Below, piece after piece: positions 1-64,000 of a DNA stretch of 64,000 bases. The stretch is from Patescibacteria group bacterium. Lineage in GTDB: Bacteria > Patescibacteriota > Gracilibacteria > BD1-5 > UBA6164. Each line of letters begins with the position of its first letter. Position 1 is the first letter of the stretch. The translations under genes were made by a program, and so were the position numbers. The notes under the pieces were generated by a model. That model ran no database searches. It was given only the letters and a program-made list of their open reading frames with translations, and was not told where the DNA came from. The stretch spans positions 5,536-69,535 of the forward strand of contig JAUCCN010000002.1 in NCBI GenBank assembly GCA_034676185.1. The letters run 5' to 3'.

Positions 1-48
1 AGTATCACTTTGCAAAACTTTTATCATCTTTTATTTGAAAATAACTAA
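1..48 (+). CDS. 3' end of an unidentified CDS (partial; possibly the N-terminal piece of a split mutS)
   Basis: The frame is open from the window edge and reads ...SITLQNFYHLLFENN, then TAA at 46-48. It is too short to identify. Confidence 0.25.
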   Translation, partial: SITLQNFYHLLFENN

Positions 49-101
49 AAAGTAATTATATTTTGATTATATGATAAATTTTAAATTTTCAACTCAAAAA
101 T

Positions 102-1481
102 ATGCAAAGCTTACAAGAAATTATTTCACTCATTGAGAGAGCAGTAAAACCTGATGCAAATAATTTGTTGACAGCAGGAGGAATTATTTCAGATAATTTT
201 GACTCAGAAATAGATCATTTAAGAAATTTAGTAAATAATTCAAATCAGTGGTTAAATGAATATACAAAAAATTTAGTTGATCAAACCAGTATTACCACTC
301 TCAAAATTAAATATACTTCTGCTTCAGGATATTTTATAGAAGTTCCACTTTCTCAAAAAGCAAAAATTCCAGAAAATTTTATTCATAAAACTACTTTAGT
401 AAATGCCCTTCGTTTTACTACTCCAGAATTAAGAGAATTTGAAGGAAAAATTATGAATGCTGAAAGTCTTTTGTATGAAAGAGAATATGAGATCTTTAAA
501 AATATTTCTTCTCAAATATTAGAAAAATTTTCTCAAATGAAAGAATATTCTCATAAAATTGCTCAAATTGATTATGTTTCAAACTTATCATATATTGCAT
601 ATGAAAATGATTATGTAAAACCAGAAATTTCTTCTTGATATGATTTAGAAATTCTATGAGCAAGACATCCAATTGTAGAAAAAATAGAAAAGAATTTTAT
701 TTCAAATGATTTATTTTTATCTCAAAAAAAATTTGTAAATATCATCACTTGACCAAATATGTGATGAAAATCTACCTATTTAAGACAAAATGCACTTATT
801 ATTTTAATGAGTCATTTATGAAGTTTTGTGCCAGCAAAAAGTGCAAAAATACCGCTTACCGATAAAATCTTTTCAAGAGTTTGAGCTTCGGATAATCTAT
901 TTTTGTGAGCATCAACATTTATGGTTGAAATGCAAGAGGTAGCAAATATTTTAAACAATTCTACAAAAAATAGTTTTGTTATTATTGATGAAGTTGGAAG
1001 AGGGACTTCAACCTATGATGGTATGAGTCTTGCATGGGCTATTTTAAAAGAAAATCATGATACTATAAAAGCAAAAACTCTCTTTGCTACTCATTATCAT
1101 GAATTAGTTGATGAGTCAAAAAAATTATCTTGAGTTTCAAATTTTTCAGTTGCGGTAAGTGAAAATGAAGAAAATATAGTATTTTTAAGAAAAATTATTC
1201 CTGGAAGTATAAAAAAAAGCTATGGAATTGAAGTTGCAAAACTTGCTTGACTTCCAAGTTCTGTTATTGAAGAAGCGAATAATTTTTTAGCAAATTTTAC
1301 AAAAGAACATACTTTTTCTCAAATGAGTTTATGAAATTTTTGAACTGAAATAAAAGAAAAAATTGTGTACAAAGAGAAAGAAAGTGAAATAGAAAAAGAA
1401 TTAAAAAAAATTGATGTGAATAATTTGACTCCAATTCAAGCATTAAATATATTGGGGGAATTAAAAGGAAAAATGAAATAA
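102..1481 (+). CDS. mutS: DNA mismatch repair protein MutS, C-terminal part only (lever/clamp + ATPase + HTH, 459 aa)
   Basis: With TGA=Gly the track ORFs 102-638 and 921-1133 join. Motifs include LGARHPIVE and Walker A ITGPNMGGKSTYLRQ (Gly codons at 750, 762 and 765 are TGA), plus [21 protein letters not shown] and FATHYHEL. The ATG aligns to about residue 380 of E. coli MutS. An in-frame TAA lies at 75-77 upstream. Confidence 0.85.
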
Positions 1482-1482
1482 A

Positions 1483-1527
1483 AATAAACCAAGCTTTAGT
1501 AAAAATAAGGCATGGTTTATTTTTTTT
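1483..1527 (+). terminator. possible intrinsic terminator after mutS
   Basis: ATAAACCA...TGGTTTAT stem with a large loop, followed by a T8 run. Confidence 0.35.
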
Positions 1528-1553
1528 GACAAAATTTTAAAATATGGTAATAT
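1526..1553 (+). promoter_or_regulatory. sigma70-like promoter of pilin gene 1
   Basis: TTGACA (1526-1531), a 16-nt spacer, then an extended -10 TGgTAATAT. The same architecture lies upstream of the other two pilin genes. Confidence 0.45.
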
Positions 1554-1586
1554 CTACATACTTTATTATTTAATTTTAGGTAAAAA

Positions 1587-4154
1587 ATGGATGACACAAA
1601 TACAAATCATTATAAAAGAAATAAAAAGTTATGAACAAATAAGGCTTTTACTTTAGTAGAGCTGATTATTGTTATTACTATTTTAGCTATTTTAGCAACA
1701 ATAGCTTTTATGAGTTTTCAAGGATATAACAAAAATGCAAGAGACTGAAATAGGGCAACAAGTTTAAAAACTATAGAGACAGGATTAGATTTATATAGCA
1801 TTCAAACTTGAGTGTATCCAGAACCAGAATGAACTATTTCAACTGGGAGTATTAATACCATTGATGGGGAGCAAATATTAGTAAAAAAATGAGTTATCTG
1901 AGATAATACTTCAAGAGTGGTAAGACTTAATACAACTCCAAAAGATCCATTATCACTGACAAATTATGTATATGCGACGACAAATGATAATAGAGAGTAC
2001 CAAATAGGAACTGTCTTGGAAACGTGAGTATCATATTTTCCTTTGATTAAAAATACTTATGCTGATAATTGATATCAAGCAAAAGTTCTGGGGAATTATA
2101 AATGATATATTACTTTTAATAGTTGAGGATTGATTTATATTACAAATATTCCAAGTTTGTTGTGGAGTTGAGATATTTCAGTAAACTTACTAGGAAGTGA
2201 GCCAAAATATATAATAAATAATGGGAAAAATCTTCCATATCATCCAAGTAAATGATATATATCATCAGATGAATTAGGAACTGAAAATCCAATTCAAGTA
2301 ATACAAGAAAAAACTCAAAACACAAATGCAACTCTTATAAGTATTTCAAAAACTGAGTTAGAACAAATCGTCAAAGAATTAAATCAAGATGAAAATTATG
2401 AGCTTCCTCAAGACCTAAAAAATAGTTTAAATGTCGATTCTGCACAAGATATCATCAAAAGTTTTTGAGTAAATAATACACAAGATTTTGAGAGAGTTAT
2501 ATTAGGAAACAAAAATACGACTTCTGGAAAAGTTATTCCAAAAACTCCATGAATATGTTGAGAAGCAGCAACTGCATATGCACATAATATGACAAATTTT
2601 ACAGGATGAGTAAATAATTTTTGTGAGGTAGGAGTTTTAGAAGGAAGTGAACCAATTTTTCCTACTCAATGAAATAATGTTTCATGGATATGTGTTTCTC
2701 CAGATTGAGGAGAAAGTGCTGAATGTAGCGCAAGTAGAGCAAATCCAGATGAAGAAGTAAAAGCATGTAGCGGAAAACCACTCAATTCAAAATATTTTAA
2801 TGGAACAGATGATTATTCAGTTACTGTGCCATTTTGAACTCAAGCTCCAGCTGTGACATATTCAGTAACGCCTACAGAAAATAGTTGTGAATATAGTTGT
2901 ATAAATGGCTATAGTATGAATGCATGAAGATGTAATGATTTGACACCACCAACTTGATGAAGTTTTAACATAAATGAATGAGCTACTAATACAAATGTAA
3001 CAGATATTACTCTGAATATTACTTGTGCTATTGATCAAATTGATGGAAGTGATATTCAGGTAGCTTTTGGAAATACTGCTACTCCAACAAATTGGCAAAA
3101 TTGTACTGGTTCTAAAAGTTTAGTTCATACGATTACTACTTGAGATGGAGTAAAAACAGTATATGTCAGATTTAGAGATAGTGCAGGAAATATGACTACT
3201 GCAATAAGTCAAACTATTACTTATGAAGGAGCATTGTATTATTTTACTACCCATACATTTACAAATTGTTGAATGACAGGAAGGACTTGACCAACTCTTG
3301 CAGCTTGTAGATCATCATATGCAACTAGTTGGGTTGGGAATGATAACTTTTTCAAAGAAGCTCATGCGCAATGAATTCAACTTTGGACAGTTCCGAAAAC
3401 AGGATGGTATAGTATAGATACTTATTGAGCTCAAGGAGGAACATTTCATTTTACTTGATGAAGATGAGTAAGAATGAAATGAGATTTTTATTTAGTAAAA
3501 TGAGAAAAATTAAAAATACTTGTTTGACAAAATGGAGGAAATAGTGGAGATCCTCATTGAAATGAAACTTGATGATGAGGTGGAACATTTGTTACAAATG
3601 CTTCAAACACAGCTCTAATTGTTGCTGGGGGGTGAGGGGGGGCTCCATCTAATACTTATGGAGTTAGTTGTTCTAGAGATATTTCTTCACAATGAGATGC
3701 AACTACGAGTACCTCAGGTAGAACTATTACTTGTAATACTACAGCATCTGGTTGAGCGAGTGGAAACTGATGAGTATCAAATTGATCCCACCAATGATGA
3801 GCTTGATGAGGACTGACTGGAAATTGACAGAACTGAATCGCTCATTGCTCACAACCTCAATGATGAGCAAGTTTTACGAATTGATGAGTTGGAGGACTTT
3901 GAAATTCTTGTTATGTTACTGCTAACTTTTGATGATTTTGATGATGATGATGAGGTGGATTATGATGACCATGAGCTTGATGAGGGTATTCTTGATGAGG
4001 AGTAGCATGATCATGGAGTTCATATTCAACTTATGGTGGTTGAGGAGGATCTTTTAGGGCTGCTACTTATAATTGAAATTCAGTTACGAACCCTCTCGCA
4101 ACTGAGTGAGCAAGATCTGGACACTGACAAGTTATTATTACAGCACTGAATTAA
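1587..4154 (+). CDS. Type IV pilin-like protein (prepilin N-terminus) with Cys-rich modules and a C-terminal ALK/LTK-like glycine-rich domain, 855 aa
   Basis: N-terminus MDDTNTNHYKRNKKLGTNKA/FTLVELIIVITILAILATIAF is a class III signal. The frame was checked codon by codon over long stretches and has many in-frame TGA but no TAA/TAG. The C-terminus reads FTNCGMTGRTGPTLAAC...GIQLWTVPKTGWYSIDTYGAQGG...LKILVGQNGG...LIVAGGGGG...FGGFGGGGGGG...GHGQVIITALN. The stop is TAA at 4152. Confidence 0.85.
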
Positions 4155-5407: not shown

Positions 5408-5438
5408 AAAAAATGCTGAATATTCAGCATTTTTTTTA
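5405..5438. terminator. bidirectional hairpin terminator between convergent GT4 gene and htpG
   Basis: AATGCTGAATA/TATTCAGCATT palindrome flanked by A8 and T8. It overlaps the htpG stop codon. Confidence 0.6.
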
Positions 5439-7334
5439 TTTAATAAATTTATTTACTCTATTTATAAATCATCTATAATCTTCTAATTCTCATCATTCTA
5501 ACAAAATAGCTTGTTCGTACACATATTGAATCATATCTTTTAATTTCTCTGATTTAAGATCTTTTTTAAACTCATCAAACATAGAGATAACCAGAGGACT
5601 TTCAGGATTGAGTTCAAGAATTCTTTTTTGAGTTGGAATTGCTTGTCCCATTGCTTTCATCATTTTTTCCATTTGTGGAGTAAGTCATCACTGCTTTGTT
5701 GTAAGAGCTCAAACATTTTCTCCCAGTCTTGATGTTGCTTGAACTTTTTCAAGTTTTTCACTTCAAATAGTATTTTTTATCAGTTCAAATAAATCTTTAA
5801 ATTCTTTTGTTTTTTCTTCAAAATCTTTTTTTTCTTCTTCATTTTGTAATTCAAGGTTTGAAGAGGTAATAGAAGTGATTTTATTTCCATCATATTCGTT
5901 TAAGACTCCAACAATCCATTCATCAATGGTATCAACTAAAAGTAAAACATCAATATTTTTATTTTTAAATTGGTCAATATATGGATTTGCTTTTGCTTCA
6001 GCGAGGTTTTTTGCTGTGATATAATAAATAGTTTTTATTTCTTTTTTTTCTTCGCCTTCACCTTCAGTTTTTTCAATTTTTGCTTTTTGAAGATATTCAT
6101 CAAGAGTGATTTCTTTATTTTCTAAAAGAGAATGAAATTTTACAATCCCAGCAATATCTTCTTTTAAATCTTGTTCATAATAAATTCATTCTTTTAAAAT
6201 TTTTCCGTAATTTTGTAGAAAAGTATTATAATTTTCACCATTTTCTTTGAGTTCAAATTTTAATTTTTCTACGATTTTTTTTGTCAGTCATTTTTTTATT
6301 TTTTCAAGATTGGTATTTGATTGTAACATTTCTCTTGAAATATTGAGTGGAAGGTCAGAAGTTTGAACGACTCCTGAAACAAACCTTAACCACACTGGTA
6401 ATAAATCACGAGCTTTTTCTAAAATCAATACATTTTGTACAAATAATTTTGGCCCATATTCTTTACTTGGGTCATCATTTCCACCAAACATATTTTTTTC
6501 TTGAGGAATAAAAAGAATTGATTTATAACTTATCATTCATTCTGTATTGAGATGAATGTGAGTGAGTGGTTTTTTGAAATCATAACTGAGGGAAGAATAA
6601 AATTCGTTGTATTCTTCATCTTTAATTTCAGATTTATTTTTATTCCAAATTGCTTTGGTTTCGTTTACTTGTTCCCATTTTTTTTCACTATCTTTATTGG
6701 TTTCATTTTCAACTTCTTTCATCATAATTGGCACTCAGACATAATTTGAATGTTTTTTTATCAGTTCTCTGAGTTTCCAATTCTGAGCATATTCATTTTC
6801 TTCTTTTTTGAGGAAAATTTTTATAATCGTTCCTCTTGATGTTTTATTTCATTCACTTAAATCGTATTTTCATTTTCCCTGCGAACTCCAAATAATTGAA
6901 GTTTCAGATTCGTTTGATTTTGTTTCTAGTTCAACTTTTTCTGCAACCATAAAAACAGAATAAAATCCAACTCAAAATTGTCCAATGAGATTATTTTGTT
7001 CTTTTGATTCTTTTAATTTTTCTAGGAAATCTTTGGTTCCAGATTTTGCAATCGTTCAGATATTTTTCATAACTTCTTCACGAGTCATTCAAATTCCATT
7101 ATCTTCAAGGGTAATAATTCCATTTTTTGAATCAGAGTCAATTTTTATTTCAAAATTTGAATTTTCTCATAAATAATTACTGTCAGTTAATGACTTAATT
7201 CTTGCTTTATCTATCGCATCAGAAGCATTTGAAATAAGTTCTCTTAAAAATATTTCTTTATTTGAATAAATACTATGAGTTAAGAGTTCTAAAAGTCTTT
7301 CTGTTTCCGCTTCAAATGAATATTGGTTACTCAT
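5436..7334 (-). CDS. htpG: Molecular chaperone HtpG (Hsp90), 632 aa
   Basis: [65 protein letters not shown] and [11 protein letters not shown]. The C-terminus reads ...[23 protein letters not shown]. Several conserved Gly residues are encoded by TGA. Confidence 0.95.
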
Positions 7335-7444: not shown

Positions 7445-7472
7445 TTGCAAAAAATATGAAATATGCTAAAAT
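7445..7472 (+). promoter_or_regulatory. sigma70-like promoter of pilin gene 2
   Basis: TTGCAA, a 16-nt spacer, then an extended -10 TGcTAAAAT. Confidence 0.45.
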
Positions 7473-7504
7473 TCGGAGGTACTTATTTTATAACTTTTTG
7501 AGTA

Positions 7505-9670
7505 ATGAAAATACTAAAAATAAAACCAGAAAATGTTTTAAAACATTTTCAAGGTAAAACCAAAGGTTTTACCTTAGTAGAGTTAATCATAGTAATAACT
7601 ATATTATCAATTCTTTCAGTAATAGCTTTTGTAAGTTTTAAAGACTATTCAAAAAGCTCAAGAGATGCAAATAAACTTTCAACCTTTAAAAATATAGAAA
7701 AGGGATTAGATTTGTTTGCTCTTAAAACTGGAAGTTATCCAGAACCAGAATGAGAAGTAACAGAGCTTCTTTGAAGTGGAAATATACTCCTTTTGAAAAA
7801 ATGAATTCTTTGAGAAACTATTTCACAGCAAATTCAAGCAAATAAAACATCAAAAGACCCACTTACCAATGATTATTATACTTATGCAATAACAGAAAAT
7901 AAACAAGAATTTCAGCTTTCAACATTTCTAGAAGATGACTTAGTATGATATACAAACTTACTCTTTTCAAAAATATATGCTAATAATAATTATAAAGCCT
8001 ATGTAATATGAAATTATAAACCAAAGATTTTTGAAGCAAATGGAGTGAGTTATTTTCTACCAAGTTTAATATTTAATTATAGTGGAAGTATAGTAGAGAA
8101 TAAACTAGAAATAAATCAAACAAATGCAGAAAATATATATTATGTAGTCAATAAAGAAAATAATCTGCCATATTGAGGAAATGGAAATACTCAAGTGAAT
8201 AATATAAAAACAAAAGATTTAAGTTATATAAAAGAATTAGAAAACAAATTACTAGAATGAAATGAAAATTTAATACAAGATTTAATAGCTTGAAAAATAA
8301 CAAGTGAAATTACTCCTGACCAAAAAGAAATGATTAAAAATATTATTTCATCTTCAAGTCAAAGTGCAAATAATATAGTATTTCAAAAATGTGAAGCTCA
8401 GGAAATAGATGATTATACTATTTGAGAAACACATCATGGAAATAATTATAATGCTGAAAAACAAATAAATATTACAAATGGAATTCAAGTGTACAAACAA
8501 ATATTTACTTGTAATGATGGAAGTTTTGAAAAAAGTGGAGATGAAATATTTTTATCGCCAAGTTGTGATGAAAACTATGTAGCAAATGGAAATAGTTGTG
8601 AGCTTGATACTTGTAGTTGAGAAAGACCAGATAATAGTGAACTGAACGGAACTCAAGGAACAGCTAGTTGGGCTTGGAGTCAAGAAGAAGCTTGAGTTTG
8701 TAAGTATAAATGTAGCGATTGATTTACTCATCAAAGTTGAGCTTGTAATGATATTACGGCTCCAACTTGATGAAGTTTTACTATAAATTGATGAGCTACT
8801 ACAACCAACTCTACGAGTGTAACTTTAAATATTACTTGTCCAAGTGATGTTTCAAATCCTATACAAGTTGCTTATGGAAATACTTCAAATCCTACAAATT
8901 GGACAACTTGTAATTCTTGAAATATTTCTCATACCTTAACAACTTGAGATGGAAATAAAACTGTTTATGTGAGATTTAGAGATAGTGCTAGTATCCAAAA
9001 TATGACAGGGGATATAAATAGAGAAATTATTTTAAATACATATTATAAATCCTGTTTAGAATTAAAAAATGCTTGAAATAATACGAGTTGAAAATATACA
9101 ATAGCTCCAACATGAAGTCCAATTGATGTATATTGTGAAATGACTACAAGTTGAGGTGGATGGACTTTAATTTGATGAACAAATACAAGTTGATGAAATA
9201 ATGGAGAATGACAAACATATATTGCATTTACAAACTTTTCTAATTATCAACAAAATTGAAAATTATCAAATGCACATATTTCCGATATTTTATCAACAAA
9301 TTCATGACAAAAGTGGATATGGGTACCACAAGAGGCTGTACGGTCGAATACCAATGCATATTGAAAAATTTCAAGTTTTAACTGGGAATCATGAGCGGTA
9401 TTTAATGATTTTAGAATGTATAGTTCTCCCAATTGAACAAATAGCTCTTCACATTGTTGGCATAATAACTCATATTGATTTAGATCATCTTCTCGGTCAT
9501 GAGCTAGTTGTACTGAAACAACGGTAACTCAATGACAATGTAGTTGATGATATGGAAGCACTAATAGGGTATCCTATTGTTGAACTGTTCCTTCTGGAAC
9601 TGCATGACGGTGATGTAGTGATTGTGCTCCTTGAGCATGATCAAGAGCTACATATATTTTAGTTAAATAA
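7505..9670 (+). CDS. Type IV pilin-like protein with shared Cys-rich/Ig-like module and C-terminal fibrinogen-like (YCxxxxxGGGW) domain, 721 aa
   Basis: MKILKIKPENVLKHFQGKTKG/FTLVELIIVITILSILSVIAF. The middle module CNDITAPTGGSFTINGGATTTN...VYVRFRDSA is paralogous to 2931-3195. The C-terminus reads CLELKNAGNNTSGKYTIAPTGSPIDVYCEMTTSGGGWTLIGG. The frame was checked, and the stop is TAA at 9668. Confidence 0.85.
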
Positions 9671-16313: not shown

Positions 16314-16883
16314 ATGAACTATACGATTATATATTCCAATACGAAACATGCACGGATACGATTATTACCAGATAATAGTTTTGAATTAATAATTCCAAAA
16401 AGACTTTCTTGAGATCAAAAATTAGTAGAGCTTTTACTTCAAAAGTGAGAAAAATTACTTCAAAAAAATCTTTCAAAAACTAAAAAGAAAATTGAGGTTT
16501 TAACAAAAGAGTATGTGCTTATTTTTTGAGAAAAAGTTTTACTGAAAGATATTCCAGAAAAATTTGAACTCTATTTATTAGAAAAATTTGAAAAAGAAAG
16601 TATATTTTTTCTGAATAAATATACGGCAAAAATTTGATTTTCGTATCAAAAACTCACTATAAAAACTTTCAAAACAAAATGGGGAAGTTGTAGCAGTAAT
16701 CAAAATATTTCTCTGAATTTTAAGCTCGTTCATCTTCCAATAAAATTTTTAGAATATGTGATTATTCATGAAGTATGTCATTTGAAAGAAAAAAATCATG
16801 GAAAGAACTTTTGGGAGTTGGTGTGAAAATATTGTCCAGAGTATAAGAAAATGAGAAAAGAGCTTAATCAGTATGTATTTTAA
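16314..16883 (+). CDS. YgjP-like (DUF45/M48-type) metal-dependent hydrolase, 189 aa
   Basis: KTKWGSCSSNQNISLNFKLVHLPIKFLEYVIIHEVCHLKEKNHGKNFWELV, containing an HExxH zinc motif. Confidence 0.75.
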
Positions 16884-17063: not shown

Positions 17064-17504
17064 TTAATTATTTATAATTAAAAACTTTTCTATAGCTTTT
17101 TTTAAAATATTTGTTTTTGGAGTTTCGTTATCATTTATTTCAATTAATTTTAATCCATTAGCATCTCATCATTTTTCAATATAATTCATATTAAAATCAT
17201 CTTTTATAATATTAACAAGATAAACTATAGCTATAATATGTTCATCTTTTTCTTCTCATTGCCAAACATGTTGTACAAAATCTTCTTCAACAGTTAATAT
17301 TTTTTCAATGTGAAAATCTGATTTTTTTAATCATACTTCCTCTATGATTTCTCTTTCTAAAGATTCAATATTTTTTTCACCATGTTCAATTTTTCATCAA
17401 GGTAAATCATAAAGTCATGTAAATGGTCATCTTCATTTTTTTATTACAACAATATTATCTTTATATTTTAATATTGCATATGCTCAAGTTCTTATTGTTT
17501 TCAT
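17064..17504 (-). CDS. NUDIX hydrolase, 146 aa
   Basis: Nudix box GLYDLPGGKIEHGEKNIESLEREIIEEVGL (Gx5Ex7REUxEExGU). Confidence 0.85.
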
Positions 17505-17536
17505 GGTTAAAATTATTTAATGTAGATTTTTAATTC

Positions 17537-17657
17537 TGGTTCACAACAATGAAAATATTGAGAACATTTTTTCAAGAACATAAAGAATTTAATGTTGCCA
17601 ATCTTTATAATGATTATTATTGATATTATAATGAATATAGGTGAAAACCAAAAGAAT
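17537..17657. repeat. Copy B of the ~115-120 bp dispersed direct repeat
   Basis: See copy A. It sits between the 3' end of the ABC exporter gene and the 5' end of the NUDIX gene. Confidence 0.85.
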
Positions 17658-17659
17658 AA
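17549..17659 (+). CDS. Candidate mini-ORF B (36 aa, ATG start), Tyr-rich peptide
   Basis: MKILRTFFQEHKEFNVANLYNDYYGYYNEYRGKPKE. Its TAA stop directly abuts the stop codon of the convergent ABC gene. Confidence 0.35.
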
Positions 17660-19375
17660 TTAAAACCCACTTTGTAAATCAATCATTTTTTTATAATATC
17701 AGTTTGATTTTACTAAATCATTATGACTTCATCTTTCAATAACAATTCATCATTCAAATACTATAATATCATCAGCATTTTTAACTGTTTGAAGTCTATG
17801 AGCAATAATTAATACAGTTCTTCAAATAAATAATTTCTCAAATGAATTTGAAATACTTTCCTCAGAAAAACTATCTAAAGCAGCAGTAGGTTCGTCTAAT
17901 ATAATAATTTTTGGATCTTTCACAAATAATTTTGCAATAGCAAGTCTTTGTTTTTGTCATCAACTTAATCTAACTCATTTTTCTCATATTTCTGTATTTA
18001 ATCAATCTTTAAAATTATATATAAAACTACACTCAGCAAGTTTTATACAATCTTCTATTTTTTTATCATTAATTAAGTTCTCATCAATTCAATAAATTAA
18101 ATTTTCCAAAATAGTTCCATCAAATACCGAAGGCTCTTGTGTAAGATATCAAATCTCTTTATAATAAGATTTTAAATTAATTTTATTTATAGGTTGTCAA
18201 TCAATAATAATATTTCAATCATTTGCTTTTAAAAATCAAGATATAAGTTTTATTAATGTAGTTTTTCAACTTCAACTTATTCAAACAAAAGCAGTTTTTT
18301 TTCATCCTATTATATTAAGTGAAAAATCTGAGAAAACTTTATTTTCTTCATAAGAGAAACTTATATTTTTTATTTCAATATTTCAATTTTTATAATCAAA
18401 TTTTTCTCAACTTTCGAGTCAGATAATCTCTTTTGTAGTATCAAAAAAGTCCCAAACTTTTTCAATGGAATAAAAATTTTTTGTAAAATTCTTAAAAAAA
18501 GATATAGAATTATTTAAAACTTCTTTTAAAATTCAAAGCATAAGAAAAATTCATACTATTTGAGATATTCATATATTTAATTTAAATGACAAAATTAAAA
18601 CTGATAAGTACACAATAAAAATTACTATTTCAGGAATAATAAACATAGAGAATAAAAAATTATTTAAATGATTATTAAAAGAAATAATATCATCAGTGTG
18701 TTTATTTAAAATGTTTACTTCTCTAAATATTTTATTGTTTTGTAAAATTTCAAATTTTGACATCACTATTTTTACTAGTTGTCTATCATAGTTTATTTTT
18801 GCTTCTGTGACTCAAATTCTATATTTAATAGCCTTATCGTTTAAATATACAAGCAAAATATTTATAATAATGAAAATTATAAAAAAAAATATTATATATA
18901 AGTTTCATAAATCTTTTAAAATAACGAAAGTTGCTATAATTGATATAAATATTTTTGTTATTACTCAGATTGAATCAACTAAAAAATTAGACCAATTTTC
19001 AAATCATTTTGATAAAATTGAAATTATTTTTCAAGTTCATATATTTTCTATATTTGTATTATCAAGTTTATTAAACTGAAGCATATATTTTGTATGAAGT
19101 ATCTTAATTGTACTATAATATAAATCAGCCCATGACCATCTTCTGGTAAAAAAAGAAAATATAAAATAAATAATATTAAATATCAAAAAATAAATAATAA
19201 ATGATTTTAGTGTATCTACTTGATTATTTTGAAATATAAAAACAAAATTTTGTATAAAGTAAACATTAATAACTAAAAAGGCAGATCATAATAATCATGA
19301 AATAATTGCTTTTAGAAAATTAAATTTATTTTGGTATAACGGTTCAAAAAACCTATAAAATTTGTTTTTTTGCAT
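17660..19375 (-). CDS. ABC exporter, fused permease/ATPase (MsbA-like type I exporter), 571 aa
   Basis: Six-TM N-terminal half. Walker A GISGSGKTT (Gly codons are TGA), signature LSGGQKQRLAIA, Walker B IIILDEPTAALD and an H-loop IIAHRL. There is no C39 peptidase domain. Confidence 0.85.
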
Positions 19376-20387: not shown

Positions 20388-20397
20388 AAAATAAACA

Positions 20398-21414: not shown

Positions 21415-21427
21415 AAATTATAATAAG

Positions 21428-45430: not shown

Positions 45431-46432
45431 ATGCACCAAATAGATTTTCTCACGACTATTATTGATAACTTTTGAGATGCAGGATTTGCTTTTCATCTTG
45501 CTATTTCTTTGCTCTATAATGATAACAATTTACAGATTCGTTTTTTTTGTGATGATAAAGAATTATTTTTACAACTGAAAGGAAATCTTGAAATTCAAAA
45601 TCTTACTTATTATGATTTAAAAGATTTTGAAAAAGAGAAACCATCAGAAACCATATATAATTTTTTTGATAGAAAAATAAATTTTGAATATCTACATAGT
45701 TTTTCGTACAATATAAAACTTATAAATTTTTCCTATTTTCTTATGCACGATGGAGTACAAAACCTGCATAATACTTCATATCAATCAAAAAATGTATCTG
45801 TAACACATTATATTCCATCTCTTTTACCAGAGTGAGGTTGAGTAATCATATCTCCACATATAGAATCATTTAAAAATGAAATAAAAGAAAAATGAATTCT
45901 CTCAGCAAGAAAAGTTTTATTTCCTTCTTTAACAGAAACAGATTATCAAAAAACTTGGATTTCTATTTTTTGTTATAAAGAAACTTTTGAAGAAATAAAA
46001 GAAACCATTTTACAAGATACAGAAAATTTTTATCTTCTTTTTCAATATCAACTGCAAGCTAAAAATGTAGTAAATATGCCATTTGTAGATATCATACAAT
46101 ATGAAAAAATATTATGTATTTGTGATAAAAATCTTGTGAGAGGAGAGAATAGTTTTGTTTGAGCATTATGAACTTGAAAACCATTTTTATGGGATATTTA
46201 TAAAGAACATAATAAAGCACATCAATATAAAATACAAGATTTTTGTCAATATTTGCAAACTATTGGAGATTTTGTAAATTATTTTGAGATATTTACTCTA
46301 TTTAATGAAGAAAAGCAAAGAAAATATTTTCAAAAATTTTGCTTAGAAAAATATATGTGAGACTTTGAAAAAATACCATATTTACTCTCTTCAAATGCAA
46401 ATCTTTTAAAAAATATAAAAAAATACCTCTAA
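45431..46432 (+). CDS. earP: EarP-like EF-P arginine rhamnosyltransferase (DUF2331), 333 aa
   Basis: N-terminus MHQIDFLTTIIDNFGDAGFAFHLAISL and C-terminal NLVRGENSFVGALGTGKPFLWDIYKEHNKAH. Both match EarP hallmark regions as recalled from memory. Confidence 0.6.
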
Positions 46433-46496: not shown

Positions 46497-47420
46497 ATGA
46501 TGAATACAAAAAAAATAATTACAGCTTTTGCAATTTCTGCATTTACTGTGACTACTTTTGCACAAGAATTACCAGTTGCAACTACTGCAGCTCCTCTTGT
46601 ACAAGAAAAAACTATTAATCTTACTTCAACTTCTATTGTTTGAGTAGATACTATTGATGCAAATACTGTATCAGTAAGACTTTCAAACCAATTAGGAGAA
46701 ATTTCTTCAACTTCTGAAGCTAAAATTTTAGAAGATGTAGCAGTTTCTGAAGTAACAAAAGATCCAGATAATGCAAAAAAAATCCATATTACTCTTGGTG
46801 GTGAACTTCAAGAAGCAACAAATTATAGTATAATTTCTGTGTCTGAAGGGCTTGATAGTAGTATTGATTTTACTTTCTCTAAAAATGAAAAAGAAGTAAA
46901 AAATACTCTTGTTCCTTCTGAAGGACAAGTATGAATTGCTTCTCTTACATTTATTGATGGAAAAAATATAGAAGTTGCTTTAAATCAAGATGGAACTCTT
47001 CCAGTATATGAATTTAAAGTTTTTAAAGAAATTTCTTCTGTATCAATGTTTGCTGATACTACAAATTTAAATATTCAATTAGAAACTCCGTTATTACCAA
47101 GCAAAGATTATATTTTGATTTTAAATTTAAGAGATAAAGAAAATAAAGATATAGAAGTAGAAAATTCTTTATATGATTTTGTAAGTAGTGAGTTTACTCT
47201 TCCTCCAGTAGAAGAAGTAATTCTTGAAAATGAAGTGCCAGCAGTAGAGGAAGCTCCTGCAGAGAATGTAGAAAACCAAATAACTCAACCTATTGAGGAA
47301 GTTGCGATGAATGTTTCGCAAACTCCTGATACTGGGGCAAAAACAAATGTATTATTATTTGCAACTTTTATTTTAACTTTGTCTATATTTTTAATAAGAA
47401 GAAAAGATTTTAAAATGTAG
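46497..47420 (+). CDS. Secreted surface protein with LPXTG-like C-terminal sorting signal, 307 aa
   Basis: Signal peptide MMNTKKIITAFAISAFTVTTFA. The C-terminus reads SQTPDTGAKTNVLLFATFILTLSIFLIRRKDFKM (xTG motif, TM segment and basic tail). Confidence 0.7.
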
Positions 47421-47482: not shown

Positions 47483-48565
47483 ATGCAATGAACTATTAGA
47501 CCAGATTATATTTTGAGAGATCAACTTTTACAAGTTATGATTGATAACGAAGGAAGTGATATGTATATTACTGTTGGCACGTATCCCGCAATAAAAATTT
47601 GATGAGATATTGTAAAAATAGATGAGTGACTTACTATACTCACTTGGAAAGATACTATGGAATTTACTCAATCAATTGTAACTGAAAAACAACATGAATA
47701 TTTAGTAAAATCGAAAAATCTTGATTTTGCATTTTCTTTCTCTGGAAGAAGATTTAGAGTAAATGTTTCGTTTCAGATGTCAAATTATATGGTAGTTATT
47801 AGACTGCTTGGAAATAAAATACCAACAGTTGATGATTTATGACTTCCAGCAATTTACAAAGAAATTACGAAACTTTGACAATGATTGATCCTTGTAACAG
47901 GACCAACAGGAAGTGGAAAATCAACGACTCTAGCAGCTATGATAAATTTTATTAATCAAAATTATAATAAACATATTATCACGATTGAAGATCCGGTTGA
48001 GTATCTTCATCCGCATGGAAAATCTATTGTAGAACAAAAAGAAATTGGAAAGGATATTCCGGATTATAAAACAGCACTTGCTTGAGCTATGAGACAAAAT
48101 CCACAAGTTATTTTATTTTGAGAAATGAGAACCACTGAAGAAATTGAAATGGCTTTAACACTTGCTGAAACGGGACATTTAGTGTTTTCTACTCTCCATA
48201 CTCGTTCTGCATATCAAACGATTTCAAGAATTATTGATAGTTTTGAATCTGGTCAACAAAATCAAATCAGACTTCAACTTGCTGATAGTTTGGTAGGAGT
48301 ATTTTCTCAAAGACTCCTGAAAGCGAGTGATGGAAGTGGAGTAAAATTAGTAAAAGAAATTCTTACTCGTACTTCGGCAGTGGTAAATTTAATTAGAGAA
48401 AATGATCTCCATCAGATTCCTTCAGTGATGCAAATGTGATCAAGAGATGGAATGCAAATTTTAGAAAAAGATATTATTGAACTTATCAATTTATGATATA
48501 TTTCAGAAGAAGAATGACTCAAATATGCAAATAATCCTAAAATTGTAAAAGAATGAATGAATTAA
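47483..48565 (+). CDS. pilT: Type IV pilus retraction ATPase PilT, 360 aa
   Basis: GSDMYITVG, Walker [25 protein letters not shown]-like [25 protein letters not shown] and AVVNLIRE. Confidence 0.9.
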
Positions 48566-49223: not shown

Positions 49224-50306
49224 TTATACATTATTTAATAATTTTTGTAATACATCACTAAAAAAAAGTACTCCATATATTCATAAAGCAAGAAATGGGC
49301 CAAAAGGCATTTTTGTATCTAATGGTACTTTTGAAGATTTGATTCATAAAACTTTTTTTATTTTATGTAAAAACTTTTTTTGCTGCTTATAATATTCTCT
49401 TGTTTTTGTGTAGATAATAATTCCAATTCATACAATACTTCCTAAAAAATAGGAAAGTAAAACTGCATGAAAGCTAAGGCTTACTCAAGCTATAAGTCAC
49501 ATTAAAATTCCAATTCTTAGATCACCTCACCCCATCCAACTTCCTCCAGAAAAGAGTATTTGTAAAAATAAAAATAAAAATACAAAAAAACTCCCAAGTA
49601 TAGCACTTCCTATACTTGATTGTTCAAAATCTATGTACAAGAAATATTTTATAAAAATAAGAATTCCTCATAAACTAAGAAGTATGAGTATATCGTATAT
49701 TTCTTTTAATCATTTGAGCATAATGAGATAAAAGCTTCCAATCATAAGAACTCAAAAACCTATGAACATAAATAATTCTCCCTGAGAAAAATTACTTGAA
49801 TATCCAGGAAGGATTGAAATAATATGAAAATCTGGAATGAGGCTTTGGATTGCAATAGTAATAAAAGTAATACTTATTAATCCAAATAAAATACTATCAG
49901 GAATTTCCAAATAGAGAATATCGTAGAAAACATATACAATAGTAAAAAATGAAAAAAGTAAAAAAAATCATAAAGAATATATTTCTTTCATATTTCATTC
50001 TAAAAGAAGCGAAAAATCAATGAGAAAATATCCAACGAGCATAAAAAGTAATCCAGTTGCCATTTCCAGTATAGGATATATAAAACTAATTTTTTCTTTG
50101 CAATATCTACATTTTCCACCATTTCATAAAAATGAAAAAATAGGAATTAAATCAAGTATTCAAAGAGTATGTTTGCATTTTGGACATTCACTTCTTCCTC
50201 AAATAATTCAAGATTTTTTATGTTTGAGTCTATGAGTAACTACTGACGAAAAACTTCAAAATAAAGTTCAAAATATAAAAAGATAGAGGTAGAATAATAT
50301 TTCCAT
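49224..50306 (-). CDS. pilD: Prepilin peptidase (A24 family leader peptidase/N-methyltransferase PilD), 360 aa
   Basis: Zinc-binding CPKCKHTL...GKCRYCKEKISFIYPILE, a multi-TM body, GGGDLRIG and MPFGPFLALG. Confidence 0.85.
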
Positions 50307-50760: not shown

Positions 50761-51960
50761 ATGTATAAAATTGGAATAGATGAAGCAGGGAGATGACCTT
50801 GGATTTGACCAGTAGTAGCTTGTAGTTTAACTTTTAATAAAAATAATCTTCCAGATAAAAATTTTCTTTGAGAATTAGGAGATTCTAAAAAACTTACTGA
50901 GAAAAAAAGAGAAGAATTATTTGAAAAGCTAATAAAACTTTCTACTTGAGAAGAACCACAAGTATATTTTTGAGTGTGAGTAGTGGATAATTATGTCATT
51001 GATGAGATAAATATTAAACAAGCAAATAAAGAAGCTATGAGGAGAAGTTTAGTAGAGCTTTTAAGAAAAATAGATAAAAAAAAGATTGAGGGAGTTTTAG
51101 TAGATGGAAATGACAATTATATATTTGAAGAGTTAGAAAAGAAACCGATTTATATTATTGAAGGAGATGCGAAAGTAGTTGAAATTGGAGCAGCTTCTAT
51201 TATAGCGAAAGTTTTTAGAGATAAACTTATGTCTACCTATGCAGTATTATATCCAAATTTATGATTGGAAAAGCACAAATGATATGGAACAAAAAAACAT
51301 AGAGAGTATTTGAACGAACCTTCAAAAATTACTGGAATTCATAGAATTTCCTATAAACCAGTAAAAAAAATATCAGAGCAAAAACCAAAACTACTTTTGC
51401 ATATATGTTGCTGACCAGATGCAAGTATTCCTATAGTTGATTTAAAAAAGGATTATGAAGTGATTTGTTTTTGGTATGACCCAAATATTCAACCAAAAAA
51501 AGAATATAATAAAAGATTAAAAGCTTTAAAAAAAGTTTGTGAGATAGAATGAGTTACTTGGATAGAATGAGAGTATGATGTGGTGAATTTTTTTCAGGAA
51601 ATAAAATGACTTGAACATACTCCTGAAAGATGAGAAAAATGTGTGAAATGTTATGATATGCGACTCAAAAGAACCGCAATTGAAGCACAAAAACTTTGAA
51701 TTACCTATTGGACTTCAACTCTTCTCACTTCTCCGCATAAAGATATAGAAAAAATGTTTGAAATAGGAGAGAAATATTCACAAGATTTTTTATCAGAGTG
51801 AACCATAAAAAAGAAATTAGAGTTTTTAAAAATTGCATTTCGAAAAAATAATTGATTTTTAAGAAGTGTAGAGTATTGTAAAACCCATGATATTTATAGA
51901 CAAAATTATTGTGGATGTATTTATTCAGATACTTTTCAGTGAGAAAATTTTAGTTGATAA
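50761..51960 (+). CDS. rnhB: Fusion protein: ribonuclease HII (N-terminal ~200 aa) + epoxyqueuosine reductase QueH/DUF208 (C-terminal ~190 aa), 399 aa
   Basis: The N-terminal part has IGIDEAGRGPWIGPVVA, DSKKL and KGYGTKKH...ITGIHRISYKP. A single frame then continues into LLLHICCGPDA...FWYDPNIQP..EY..R...ERGEKCVKCYDMRL...TSPHK...YRQNYCGCIYS. Confidence 0.75.
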
Positions 51961-54933: not shown

Positions 54934-56322
54934 TTAAGCACTTTTTCTTCTTATAAAGAATACTCCAGCCCCAAGAGAAAGAGCAATAAGTACGAATAAC
55001 ATTTCTTTTGGTCCAGTTTGTACTTTTGTCATACTTGAGTAGTTTGTACTTTCCACATTACATACATCATCTTTAAAGACTGCTTTTACTGCAAAATTAT
55101 CATATTCAACAGTATCTCATTGTATAATGATTTCATATTGATTTTGTGTAACATTTTCAATAAGAGTCATATTTTCACCACTTCTATCTTTTTTATATAC
55201 ATTATAACTTGAAGCTTTTTCTACTTTATCCCAAGAAATAACTGATTTTGATTTTAATTTTACTGAAGATATATTTTTTACTTCCAATTCTTTTTTAAAG
55301 TCATCACAATTTACTTCTACTGGGGAGGTATCTTCTTCAGTAGAAGCAAGAAGTTCTACTGCTTTTACTTTTATAGATTTTACTTTATCTGCTTTTGTTT
55401 CAAGTCAGAGTTCATTTTTCATAACTACATTTATATCGTATTCTCATTCATTTTTAGGAGTAGAAATAGTTCCGATATATGTTCCTGATTTTTCTTCTTT
55501 TAAAGAAGTTACCATATCATTTATAATAATATTGAGAGAAGTAAGACCATTAGTTGCTTCTACACTTACTCAAACACTACTTTCTGAATTATATTCTTCT
55601 AAATTTGGATTGAGAGAAATACTTTTAAATACAGGAGCATTTGACTCTACTTTAAAAAATATTTCTTTTGAACTTCATATAATAGTTCAGTCAGCATCAA
55701 GTAATTCTGCAACAAAAACATTTTCTCAAGATGGAATATTGTTTATTTCTATTTCAAAAATTCATTCAGCATTACTAATTGTTTCTGTACTTGAATCATT
55801 ATTGAGAAGAATTTTGACTTTATGATTTTTAGAAGCCGTTCCACTTACTTTTATTTTGTTTGCTCCTATTGTAATTCATTCTTCAGGATATTTAATAGCA
55901 ATATCTCCTTCTACTTTAGTTCACCCATCAGCAGTAACTTCTATTTCACTGTATCAAAATATATCATAATTAGAATTATCATACACACTAATATCTTGAA
56001 TTCAAGCCTTTGTAAATTTAATAGCATTTTCAAATTTTACCACTCATCCATCACTTGCTTTAAAGGTATAGAGATTTTCTTCTAAAATTCCAGGAAATAC
56101 GGCTTCTTTATCTGTTTGAGAAAATATAAGTATTTCACCAACATAGTCTTTTACTACATTTCCACTTTTATCTACTGCTTTTAAAGTAATATCAATAGAT
56201 TCTCCAACTTTTACTTTTATTGGATTGGCTTCAATCTCAAAACGATCAACAGATGCAGCAGAAGCAAAATGGAAAAATCATATTCCTAAAAGAAGAGTTA
56301 GAATTCTTTTTAAATTTTTCAT
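54934..56322 (-). CDS. Secreted Ig-like/FN3-like repeat surface protein with LPXTG-like C-terminal sorting signal, 462 aa
   Basis: Signal peptide MKNLKRILTLLLGIGFFHFASA and beta-rich repeats. The C-terminus reads MTKVQTGPKEMLFVLIALSLGAGVFFIRRKSA. Confidence 0.7.
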
Positions 56323-58776: not shown

Positions 58777-59391
58777 TTATTTTTCTGCTTTTGGATCAGC
58801 TGGAAGATCAGCTTGAGGAGCAGTTGTATCAATTACTTCATCTTTTGGTTTTACTGCAATTGCTACTACTTCATCTTGAGAAGTAAGTATTTCATATTTA
58901 TCAGAAATATTGATATCAGAAACTTTTATATTGTCTCCAATTTTTTCTAATTTTGCAAGATCAACTTCAAAGTTATCAACTAAATCAGTTGGTAAACATT
59001 TTACTTCTACTTGTTTTAGAACTTCTTCAATAATTGCTGATTCTTCTATTTTTGCTTTTGATACTCAAACAAAAGTAAGAGGAATATGAGTATGAACTTT
59101 TTCTCATTTTGTAATAGCATAAAAGTCAACATGAATAATGTCCCCACTTACAGGAGCTTTTTGAATTTCATGAAATAAAACATCTATTGTTTTACCATCT
59201 ACATCAAGAGAAACAATACGATTTTCTCAAGCAACACGGTATGCTTTTAAAACATCAGAGCTTCCTAATTTAATACTAAGAGCTTCTTGTTTTTGTCCAT
59301 ATACTATTGCAGGAACTCATTTGTTAGCTCTGAGTGATTTTACTTCTTCTCAAGCCTCTCTTTTTTGGCTTTTTAATACTATTTTTTCCAT
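58777..59391 (-). CDS. rplY: 50S ribosomal protein L25/general stress protein Ctc, 204 aa
   Basis: LRANKGVPAIVYGQKQEALSIKL...VLFHEIQKAPVSGDIIHVDFYAI. Confidence 0.85.
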
Positions 59392-60375: not shown

Positions 60376-60378
60376 AAT

Positions 60379-60412
60379 AAAAAAGAGTTATTTCAAGTAA
60401 CTCTTTTTTATT
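60379..60412. terminator. bidirectional terminator
   Basis: AAAAAGAGTTA..TAACTCTTTTT, an 11-bp stem. Confidence 0.6.
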
Positions 60413-62314
60413 TTATCTTACGATTAACTTTTCATCTTTTATTTCAAAATTTACTTTATAGATTCCACTTTTTGTCAGAATACTGAGCTCTCCATCTCTT
60501 GGAACATAAAATCATAAAATACTTTCCATTTTTCCTTCAATTTGTCCTCTATAAGTGAGGCTTTTTGTATCAGTAAATACTTTTGTATTTGGTTCAAAAA
60601 CCCAAATTTTATCATTCAAATACATATAAATATAATTGAGATTGTTTCTTACTACCAGTTTTACTTTACTGTTTCATATAGTATAATTTTGAGGAAGTTT
60701 ATTTAAAACAATACTTTCTAATCTGTATTTTGGAGAAGAGAAAAATTTAAATAATTTTCCATCATCTTTCAGCATATAAATTCAACCATCAATTCAAATA
60801 GAAACTATTTTAGTAAGGTTTTTTGAGTCATTATCATTTAAATATGGAACTCAAGAAGTATATGACCCGGAACTTGGGGCATGTTTATATACTTGATTTT
60901 GTGAGGTATTTGACATATAAATATTGTTGTTATATGTTTCAATATAAGAACTTCATTGCCAAGTAGTTTGTCCTATTACATTTATATAACTAAATTTTCA
61001 GTCTTTTGTTAATTTTATAACTCTTTGTTTTTTGGTGGTAAGAATAATATCATCCCCAACACTCACTCCATCAAGAAATTCATCATCAACTTCTAACTCA
61101 CTAAAGAGATTATTTTTAATATCTTGTCCTGAAATGATAGGACCATATACTGAACTTTTTCCTATTACATAGAGTTTTTTCCCAGTTTCAATAAGTTTTA
61201 TTCCATCATCAAAATTTCATTTAAAAATCAGATTTCCCGTATTTCCTTCAAATACTTCAATTCCATTAAATTGTTTTTTTATAATTGATATATCATCATA
61301 GATATTTTTAATATCATTCATAAACAATTCTTGATCAGCTACTTTCGCAATAAGTTCTTCAGCTTTATTTATATTGAGTTCAAAGGTTTCTTTATTGGCA
61401 AGATTTTGGTTTGCAAGACGAATATATTCTCTTGCTTGGATAAGATTATTTTTATATTCAGTTGTTTTTGAATTTTCAATACCTTTTCATAAAATTCCTG
61501 AAATCATATAAAAAAGTATAAAAGTAGAAATAATAATTCCTCCTAAAAATAGAATATTTTTTACAATTTTTCATCTTGCTTCTATTTTTTCTTTTATAAT
61601 CATCGAAAGTGCAATAGTTTTTTTTGAAAAATTATTATCAAGGAGTTTGTAATATATATTTTTTGCTTTTTCTAATTTGTAATTTACACTACTTCAAGCA
61701 GAAGCATAGTCTGAAAAAATTCAACCAAGAGAAATATTTGATGCGACTTTTTCATCTTTTAAAATATCAGCAATATTATCAGTAATTTTTGATATCTCAT
61801 TTAAACTTCCTATATCTTTCCAATCACTCGTAGTAAGATATTCTCATATATTTTGGCTAGAAAATATTACTACTTCTCAGTAAGTAATTTTTCAGCTTGA
61901 TATATAATCAAAAGAAGTCGCTTTTTCATTTTTATCACTGATTTCTATGACTTCTTTTTTTTGATTTATTAAAAAACAACTTGCTTTTCCGATTTTTGCA
62001 AAATGAAGATTATTTTTTTCTAACAGTCCGATTATAATATGTAAATCGTGTAAATTATTTTCTTTATCTTTGAGAGTTTTTAAGAAAAAATTAATACTTT
62101 CAAGACTTACAGAAAAAGTATTATAGACATCTTTTGTAGTAATGGTGTCTAAAAGATAATCTACTACTTTATTTAAAAGAGGAGTGATGATTTTTTTATT
62201 TTGACTATCTATTAAAATAAAACAATTTATATGTTCATCAATTTGAATATTTTTTCAAGTAGTAGTGTTTTCAGAGAGATCTGTTTGATAATCTTTTACA
62301 TTAAAATGAAACAT
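60413..62314 (-). CDS. Hypothetical single-pass membrane protein (cytoplasmic N-domain, TM, large beta-rich extracytoplasmic domain), 633 aa
   Basis: ATG at 62314 to TAA at 60413, length divisible by 3. The TM segment is ILFLGGIIISTFILFYMISGIL. The C-terminal half has recurring hydrophobic-Y/G beta-strand patterns. Confidence 0.6.
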
Positions 62315-62472
62315 AAAAAAATGAGTTAATAACTAATAATATATTTCTTGAAAGCAAATATAATAAAAAATATTTTTTTTGCAATTTTTTATATGGTATC
62401 TGGACAAAAATTTTTATCGTAATTTATTTTCCATGTTTTGAGTAAAAAGTCAATAAAGAGACAAAAAATCAT

Positions 62473-62500
62473 TTGACAAAAAAATTAAGAGTGCTAAAAG
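62473..62500 (+). promoter_or_regulatory. sigma70-like promoter of pilin gene 3
   Basis: TTGACA, a 16-nt spacer, then an extended -10 TGcTAAAAG. Confidence 0.45.
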
Positions 62501-62572
62501 TATATTACTTATAAAAAAGAAAGTTTAAAAGAGAATTTAATTTTCTATAATTTAATTTTTAAATAATAGTAT

Positions 62573-64000
62573 ATGAAAACTATAAATACAAAAAAGAAAT
62601 CTCTTCCTACATCTTACTGAACGAAAAGAGAAGAAAAAGTTTGTTTTTCTATGAATGTAAAGAAAGGAATTTGAAAATGATTTACTCTCGTTGAACTCAT
62701 TATTGTCATTACTATTTTGGCAATTTTAGCAACGATTGCTTTTATTTCATTTAAAAACTATTCTTGAAATGCTAGAGATGGAAATAGAATAGCAACTGTA
62801 AAAAATCTTCAAAGTGGTTTAGATCTCTACCAAATTAAAGTATGAAATTACCCATTTCCAGACGGTGATCAGATTCTTACTGGAACCATAAATGATCAAC
62901 CTCTTGCCTATAAATGAGAAATAGGAAATAATATAGTAAGCCAAATCAAGTTTTCTAAACTTCCAAGTGATCCAGAAGAATCAAATCAAAAATATGTATA
63001 TGGAATTACCTCCAATAAACAACAATATCAAATCTGAACTGTATTAGAAAACCCAGTGAGTTATGAACCTTACTTTATAACTCCAACATATGCAAATACA
63101 AATTCATATAAAGCAAAAGTAGAATGAAATTATAAATGATATATTTTATTTTTAAGTTGAGGGACAACGTGGATAGCTAATATTCCAAGTCTTATCTATA
63201 ATTTTACTGGAACATTAAGTGGAAGTGGAATAGATTTACTCAATCAAGCTCAAACATACTATTCAGTAAATACTTGAAATAATCTTCCATATCAACTGAA
63301 GAATGCAAAAAATATAAATCAAGAAGAAAGTGATCAAGTCCTTAAAAATAAAACCTGAAATACAGAAGCAAAGCTAGTAACTCTATCAAAAGAAGAATTA
63401 TTAACATATTTTAATAGTGAGGAGGAAACTCCAACTCTTACAACCTGAATAACTAGCGGAGAATTATTATGAAGTTTTTGAGTAAATAATAAAGAAAGTT
63501 TAGAAATTCTTGTTACTTGAAATGCATCTCCACTAACTCCACCAGCCCCAACTACCGTAAACGGAACTTGTGGAAGTGCCAATAAAATATACGAACATAC
63601 AGATACAACATATTGAACTGGTACATTTTGTGAGAGCGGAATTTCAAATCCAGCAACTCCAGTGTTTCCAACTGAATGAACCCCAACTACTTGGACTTGT
63701 GAATGAAGCGGAACTCCTACTTGAACTACTGCAAACTGTACTGCTAATAAGGCATCTTCCCTAACAAGTGTAAGCCAAACTCAATGTACATCAGCTTGAT
63801 GGGCTTGGATATCAGAGGCAAATGATGTATACATTTGAGATACGAGATGAAACTGATTTTGTATTTCACCAACTATAGATATATGAGACTTAGCTGGACA
63901 ATGAATATCATGGAATGGATGGGGAAATCTTTCATCAAATATAAATTATAATGGATGGAATACAGATACCTGGGCAAGTACTATCAGAGATAGTGATGTC
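62573..64000 (+). CDS. Type IV pilin-like protein 3 (partial, runs off the window)
   Basis: ...MNVKKGIGKG/FTLVELIIVITILAILATIAF. An alternative start is ATG at 62651. It shares GNYKGYI..F.SGG...IANIPSL and the Cys motif CGSANKIY...FCESG...WTCEGSG..ANCTA with pilin 1. The frame is open to position 64000. Confidence 0.8.

Follow-up and report, generated by a model that had tools for sequence, protein, structure and literature searches.

The 64,000-nt stretch analysed here, referred to below as the window, belongs to contig JAUCCN010000002.1 (positions 5,536 to 69,535; GenBank assembly GCA_034676185.1) of a Patescibacteria group bacterium. It has a G+C content of about 26%, and the open reading frames (ORFs) found in it depend strongly on how the codon TGA is read. 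Under the standard bacterial code (translation table 11), stop-to-stop frames reach 212 aa at most, and those of 100 aa or more add up to only 4,638 aa, whereas with stops restricted to TAA and TAG the frames extend up to 972 aa. When TGA is treated as a sense codon, ATG-started, non-overlapping ORFs of at least 60 aa number 60 and cover 91.7% of the window; 58 of these 60 contain in-frame TGA, amounting to 721 codons and a mean of about 12 per gene. The 59 complete ORFs terminate in TAA (51) or TAG (8). The original prediction, made from the letters alone, had proposed that UGA encodes glycine throughout (translation table 25) and that reading it so yields about 68 full-length genes, all ending in TAA or TAG. 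Reading through TGA indeed merges the fragments, but the count is 60 ORFs, four tRNA genes and a few possible small ORFs; similarly, the statement about terminators is true, but by construction once TGA is taken as sense.

Across the 60 ORFs, the 721 in-frame TGA codons compare with 580 GGN and 138 TGG codons. If TGA is glycine, it is the commonest glycine codon of the window, accounting for 55% of all glycine codons, and the glycine content of the encoded proteins is 6.6%; otherwise the glycine content is 3.0%. If TGA is instead tryptophan, the tryptophan content rises to 4.4%, which is implausible.

The identity of the amino acid was assessed mainly with the valyl-tRNA synthetase (ValRS), whose gene carries 44 TGA codons. 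We aligned the protein, with each TGA entered as X, to 120 database homologues, among which two groups could be distinguished: 24 sequences with 5 to 7.6% tryptophan and about 1% glycine, and 91 sequences of normal composition. The 24 tryptophan-rich sequences come from recoded relatives and represent table 4 translations, and the column analysis was based on the 91 homologues with normal tryptophan content (805 columns). Glycine is the majority residue at 27 of the 44 TGA columns, while only 42 such columns exist among the 805 (hypergeometric p = 2.9e-28). Viewed from the side of the residue, the window encodes the 42 glycine-majority columns with TGA in 27 cases and with GGN in 6, and the 20 tryptophan-majority columns with TGG (17), TTT (2) or TTA (1), never with TGA. 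The picture is sharper at columns conserved to at least 80%, where TGA faces glycine 17 times and serine once, TGG faces tryptophan in 12 of 12 cases, and all other codons observed keep their standard meaning. In addition, glycine fills 127 of 264 cells, and tryptophan none, at the TGA columns of six homologues whose names place them in Cyanobacteriota, Clostridia or Firmicutes. The predicted enrichment of glycine opposite in-frame TGA was therefore confirmed in this protein, both by the overall p value and by 17 of the 18 strongly conserved TGA columns.

A comparable pattern was obtained with reference structures from organisms using the standard code. Glycine lies opposite TGA at 9 of 12 positions in E. 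coli MutS, 9 of 12 in GspE (PDB 4pht), 7 of 17 in E. coli HtpG and 2 of 7 in Thermotoga maritima QueH, where the remainder are Ala, Ser and Asp. Pooled over these four references, glycine occupies 27 of 48 TGA positions, compared with a background of about 7%, and tryptophan occupies none of the 48. Several of the TGA codons fall within nucleotide-binding motifs, as had been predicted. In the Walker A motif of MutS (750-776), TGA occurs at 750, 762 and 765, and the segment reads tga cca aat atg tga tga aaa tct acc, that is, xPNMxxKST. In the PilB/GspE-type ATPase, TGA occurs at 30739, 30748 and 30754 (tga cca act tga agt tga aaa tca, xPTxSxKS, within 30739-30765), and in the ABC exporter on the minus strand both the Walker A motif (xISxSxKTT, 18257-18283) and the LSGGQ signature (LSxxQKQR, 17945-17968) are written with TGA. 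The PilT ATPase encoded elsewhere in the window uses GGN for the three Walker A glycines that are TGA in PilB, and is thus an internal control for the equivalence of TGA and GGN.

Two further motif assignments fared less well. The TGA at 657-659, which had been placed on an invariant glycine of the MutS motif LGARHPIVE, faces the glutamate of E. coli MutS (TEGRHPVVE), and the glycine of the GRHP core corresponds to an alanine codon in the window; this assignment was incorrect. The single TGA of ribosomal protein L7/L12, located in the DAGG motif, does occupy a glycine-majority position, as 21 of the 32 loci that bear standard-code taxon labels carry GGN there, but the position is not invariant, since lysine occurs in 8 of the 32. 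The two TGA codons of L10 align with Ala/Gly and Gly/Pro columns, a placement that, judged from the alignment, fits glycine. The MutS ORF starts at 102 and is preceded by in-frame TAA codons at 42-44 and 75-77; the N-terminal mismatch-binding half is either encoded in a separate ORF or missing.

To follow individual codons among relatives, we compiled 85 related loci, comprising 80 regions around rplL (one genome per species) and five short Logan contigs (1 to 9 kb) that were matched by GatC or ValRS and lie inside the span of the window, and paired their codons with those of the window through tblastn alignments run with code 25. Opposite the TGA codons of the window stand 439 TGA, 199 GGN and no TGG codons, and none of 143 paired TGG codons of the window faces TGA, so that TGA and TGG are not interchanged once in 850 + 143 aligned codon pairs. 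In alignments of at least 90% identity, 226 of 233 TGA codons are kept and all seven changes are to GGA or GGT; in the same band, GGA is replaced by TGA ten times. Judged by these aligned codons, TGA and GGN are used synonymously within the clade.

Profile scores distinguish the two candidate amino acids in the same way. The tRNA-synt_1 domain of ValRS scores 298.5 bits when TGA is translated as glycine and 207.5 bits when it is translated as tryptophan, and the ABC_tran domain of the ABC exporter scores 110.1 and 56.6 bits, respectively, so that translation as tryptophan lowers Pfam scores by 53 to 91 bits. A Fibrinogen_C match in the pilin-like protein g05 (33.8 bits) and a full-length, below-threshold match to the ALK/LTK glycine-rich domain in the pilin-like protein g02 (21.8 bits) are found only with glycine, the tryptophan translations giving no match. 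Moreover, many Pfam matches run from end to end across in-frame TGA codons, for example in SmpB (1-142 of 143), IPPT (1-242 of 243) and the three DnaN domains.

Because alignment columns, interchange with GGN, profile scores and composition all agree, we read TGA as glycine, in line with the original prediction. The window is almost certainly a chromosome fragment of a Gracilibacteria (BD1-5)-type bacterium from the Candidate Phyla Radiation (CPR) that uses table 25, with UGA as glycine, UGG as the sole tryptophan codon, and UAA and UAG as stops. The proposed origin in this clade fits the nearest genomes, which are labelled Candidatus Gracilibacteria or Patescibacteria group. The best L7/L12 match, 99% identical, lies on JAUCDK010000015.1 of Patescibacteria group bacterium R32x_41d_il_Bin2.17, followed by many metagenome-assembled genomes labelled Candidatus Gracilibacteria at 70 to 90%, including the closed genome CP042461.1 at 73%. 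Among the best 120 matches to the RNase HII-QueH protein, every one with a name is named as Gracilibacteria. Assignment to Gracilibacteria (BD1-5) rather than to Absconditabacteria would rest on the labels of these relatives and on the behaviour of CGA described below. The lineage that uses table 25 comprises Gracilibacteria and Absconditabacteria and corresponds to GTDB class JAEDAM01. The table itself, named the Candidate Division SR1 and Gracilibacteria code at NCBI, is referenced to the 2013 studies of Campbell and colleagues and of Rinke and colleagues. The window shares with table 25 organisms the meanings of UGA, UGG, UAA and UAG, the low G+C content, the Gracilibacteria-labelled neighbours and a typical CPR gene content (type IV pilus parts, reduced metabolism), and among the features compared within the window no difference was noted. 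As had been stated beforehand, this reassignment is already established for Gracilibacteria and Absconditabacteria, and the phenomenon is therefore known rather than new.

The use of TGA is not uniform along the window. In a low-GC block on the minus strand (g14-g19; 20 to 25% G+C), TGA accounts for 149 of 167 glycine codons (89%), compared with 50% outside it (Fisher p = 1.4e-23); the adjoining gene g13 on the plus strand uses TGA for 5 of its 7 glycine codons. The share of TTA among leucine codons is likewise higher in the block (71%, vs 43% elsewhere). Either a compositional island or relaxed selection in this region might account for the block. At the other extreme, the five ribosomal-protein genes contain 9 TGA vs 30 GGN codons (9 of 39 glycine codons; p = 5e-5 vs other genes), and in L7/L12, L10 and L31 the TGA share is 0-14%. 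Such counts suggest that UGA is disfavoured as a glycine codon in highly expressed genes, possibly through weak selection against it, and the overall usage pattern would fit an AT mutational pressure that is opposed by selection in those genes.

With regard to mechanism, the literature on the clade points to a decoding system in which a dedicated tRNA-Gly with anticodon UCA would read UGA, release factor 2 (RF2, encoded by prfB) would have been lost, and release factor 1 (RF1) would handle both UAA and UAG. A base composition as poor in G+C as that of the window (about 26%) favours drift from GGA to TGA. Glycine identity elements expected in such a tRNA(UCA) are G1:C72, C2:G71, G3:C70 and U73. 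In published work, tRNA-Gly(UCA) is the expected decoder of UGA (PMC8629427; preprint 10.64898/2026.05.24.727570), in Gracilibacteria-labelled genomes without it RF2 is present and UGA serves as a stop (PMC8629427), and in the BD1-5 genomes examined prfB was undetected in all while prfA was present (PMC6851277). At the protein level, proteomics of a BD1-5 enrichment yielded 97 peptides unique to the glycine database vs 3 for the tryptophan database (Hanke et al. 2014, PMC4032931).

Several observations weigh against glycine as the meaning of TGA in the window, or temper it. No tRNA(UCA) was found in the 64 kb by ARAGORN and Rfam, which detected four other tRNAs only, nor by ARAGORN in the rplL loci of 46 relatives (Gracilibacteria/Patescibacteria), and no release-factor Pfam domain was found in the 49 window ORFs scanned, although 64 kb cannot show genome-wide absence. 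Variable columns, in which homologues have other residues, account for approximately 40% of the TGA positions; this is expected for any codon, and it means that not every TGA is individually proven to be glycine. Pairing by tblastn with code 25 slightly favours glycine in weak alignments, an effect that leaves the band of at least 90% identity untouched. Finally, in g47, g26, g39 and g43, a TGA occurs one to three codons before the TAA, and the site at which the ribosome stops is ambiguous from sequence. As a separate observation, in one related Gracilibacteria locus (2164-2238 of L008) ARAGORN called, next to tRNA-Gln, a tRNA to which it gave no identity and whose anticodon has only two bases (ag).

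The four genes with a TGA shortly before the TAA would also be compatible with a dual meaning of UGA, as glycine inside genes and as terminator for some genes or contexts. We consider this very improbable, since 3' ends show no excess of TGA (12 genes have one in the last 10 codons vs 18 expected), the C-termini of MutS, GspE, HtpG and QueH fall within a few residues of the ends of their structural homologues, internal TGA is present in all but two of the ORFs, at about 12 per gene on average, and BD1-5 genomes reportedly lack RF2 (PMC6851277). A reading of TGA as tryptophan (table 4) has more on its side at first sight: TGA is clearly a sense codon in an AT-rich genome, the public copy of the ValRS shows tryptophan at 44 of 44 TGA positions, and table 4 lineages have been reported within Patescibacteriota, specifically in Minisyncoccia (preprint 10.64898/2026.05.24.727570). 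The window resembles the table 4 organisms, such as Mycoplasmatales and several insect endosymbionts, in having UGA as sense, an AT-rich reduced genome and a coding density that is recovered by reading through TGA. It differs from them in that its TGA columns are glycine and never tryptophan, with no tryptophan opposite TGA in any standard-code homologue examined, and in that TGA interchanges with GGN and not with TGG; the tryptophan-majority ValRS columns without a single TGA, the loss of Pfam bits and the inflated tryptophan content speak against table 4 as well. We accordingly give this reading next to no credence. For the standard code, with the in-frame TGA codons as products of pseudogenisation or of sequencing or assembly error, nothing speaks beyond the fragmentation of the table 11 ORFs themselves, and we accord it no probability at all: 721 in-frame TGA codons stand beside zero in-frame TAA or TAG codons across a coding density of 92%, TGA positions are kept in independent assemblies (226 of 233 at the highest identities), and TGA is strongly concentrated on glycine columns. 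The column and codon-pair data refute the table 4 reading, the standard-code reading is refuted as well, and glycine is retained as the meaning of TGA.

A further question is whether the lineage has, on top of table 25, reassigned CGG (and/or CGA) from arginine to tryptophan. Codetta has predicted CGA/CGG as tryptophan in Absconditabacteria and CGG as tryptophan in some Gracilibacteria (PMC8629427), and the window shows the same rarity of these codons, with 7 CGA and 4 CGG among 19,570 codons and AGA as the dominant arginine codon. One CGA column in g30, a UPF0489 protein, seemed to point in that direction (residue 115), as 11 distant Gracilibacteria loci carry TGG there. This candidate was rejected: the four closest relatives with a differing codon have AGA or AGG, and the position is better read as a lineage-specific change from tryptophan to arginine. 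The two CGA codons of QueH face arginine in 86 of 86 and 85 of 86 clade homologues, one of them also faces arginine in T. maritima QueH, and further CGA codons of the window stand opposite AGA, AGG or AAA in their close relatives. In the reverse direction, the relatives' CGA faces AGA of the window 82 times and their CGG faces it 14 times. By these alignments CGA is still arginine, and in this the window differs from the extended code of Absconditabacteria (PMC8629427), which it otherwise resembles in UGA as glycine, rare CGA and CGG, and dominant AGA. No informative column covers CGG in the window, and its reassignment gains no support from there; the four occurrences, at unconserved positions, speak neither for it nor against it. 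We therefore hold it unlikely that table 25 is extended here, although the lineage may also read its rare CGG codons as tryptophan. Columns split between arginine and tryptophan, like that of g30, could mislead profile-based inference of CGA/CGG reassignment.

Further genes of the window are listed in Table 1 together with the features discussed above. An N-terminal methylation motif is found in three large pilin-like proteins, paralogous to one another, of which g05 contains a fibrinogen-C-like domain including a GGGW motif; the three are probably pilus-tip adhesins. Other type IV pilus genes are scattered over the window (PilB/GspE ATPase, PilT retraction ATPase and prepilin peptidase). The RNase HII-QueH protein is encoded as a fusion in one ORF, and the same two-domain architecture occurs in 120 of the 120 best database matches; the fusion is therefore conserved in the clade. 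One ORF matches EarP, the arginine rhamnosyltransferase of elongation factor P (EF-P), a family known chiefly from beta- and gammaproteobacteria. In a type III restriction-modification pair, a 72-aa ORF separates Mod from Res. Upstream of rplJ, an Rfam L10 leader overlaps the 5' end of the longest L10 ORF, and the true start is therefore probably the downstream methionine of MAVSRAKK, at about 27971. At the C-terminus of two predicted surface proteins, xTG precedes a hydrophobic stretch and RRK, an arrangement that resembles a sortase sorting signal; no Pfam match was found for either of them.

Table 1. Coordinates of genes, motifs and codons in the window
Feature	Coordinates	Strand	Remarks
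Whole segment	1..64000	.	60 ORFs of at least 60 aa, readable only with TGA as sense; almost certainly a Gracilibacteria-type chromosome
MutS, C-terminal part	102..1481	+	459 aa; aligned with residues 400-850 of E. coli MutS; 12 TGA
Pilin-like g02	1587..4154	+	N-terminal methylation motif; 74 TGA; Gly-rich C-terminus
Two further pilin-like paralogues	7463..9670, 62573..64000		N-terminal methylation motif
HtpG (Hsp90)	5436..7334	-	GQFxVGFYS at 6957-6983; 17 TGA
CGG codons, three	starts 9341, 9494, 9608	+	Variable C-terminal domain of pilin-like g05; 9341..9610 region
g13	16314..16883	+	Adjoins low-GC block
CGG codon, fourth	16353..16355		Unconserved region
Low-GC block	17064..25256	-	NUDIX protein, ABC exporter, TupA-like ATP-grasp protein, GT2 glycosyltransferase, unknown protein, ValRS
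ABC exporter	17660..19375	-	33 TGA vs 3 GGN; Walker A and LSGGQ signature as in text
Valyl-tRNA synthetase (ValRS)	22839..25256	-	44 TGA; HIGH motif HIxH at 25101-25112
tRNA-Gln(CTG)	25455..25528	-	ARAGORN and Rfam
Ribosomal protein L7/L12	26904..27278	-	One TGA, 26991-26993 (DAGx)
Ribosomal-protein genes	26904..28416, 37429..37629, 58777..59391		L7/L12, L10, L31, S21-like ORF (by eye only), L25
L10 leader	28001..28138		Rfam RF00557, 47.5 bits
tRNA-Leu(TAG)	28474..28557	-	ARAGORN and Rfam
tRNA-Tyr(GTA)	28627..28711	-	ARAGORN and Rfam
tRNA-Thr(TGT)	28786..28861	-	ARAGORN and Rfam
PilB/GspE-type ATPase	30163..31485	+	Walker A xPTxSxKST 30739-30765; 12 TGA inside GspE alignment
CGA codon of g30	33283..33285		UPF0489 protein, residue 115
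Type III restriction-modification pair	40326..45353		Mod and Res
Mod methylase	40326..42176		N6_N4_Mtase
Res helicase-nuclease	42444..45353		ResIII
EarP-like protein	45431..46432		PF10093, E = 1e-34
Predicted surface proteins	46497..47420, 54934..56322		Sortase-sorting-signal-like C-termini
PilT retraction ATPase	47483..48565		
PilT Walker A	47900..47926	+	GPTGSGKST, all three glycines GGN
Prepilin peptidase	49224..50306		A24 N-terminal domain
RNase HII-QueH fusion	50761..51960	+	One ORF, 18 TGA; QueH = epoxyqueuosine reductase
CGA codons of QueH	51661..51663, 51841..51843		Arg in clade homologues

The public copy of the ValRS (P0001) is identical to the protein of the window except for tryptophan at all 44 TGA positions, and for the same reason the contig look-up marks its contig as not translating to the query. 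This case is not isolated, as 24 of the 120 ValRS matches and at least 66 of the best 120 RNase HII-QueH matches in the public protein collection are tryptophan-rich, and most of the clade's proteins in that collection appear to be table 4 mistranslations. The original warning that a standard-code annotation of this contig would be wrong holds, given that table 11 fragments nearly every gene, and it extends to table 4. Coding-density tools cannot separate table 4 from table 25 and pick table 4, by which more than half of all glycines are silently turned into tryptophan. Such mistranslation corrupts the Walker A, ABC signature and HIGH motifs, with the loss of tens of profile bits, and hides glycine-rich domains, as in the pilin-like protein at 1587-4154, which turns poly-tryptophan. 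The underlying biology is not new: UGA as glycine is table 25, known since 2013, validated by proteomics and recognised by current code predictors. For CPR proteins, structures or domain architectures mined from such collections, the consequence is that the sequences should be retranslated with table 25.

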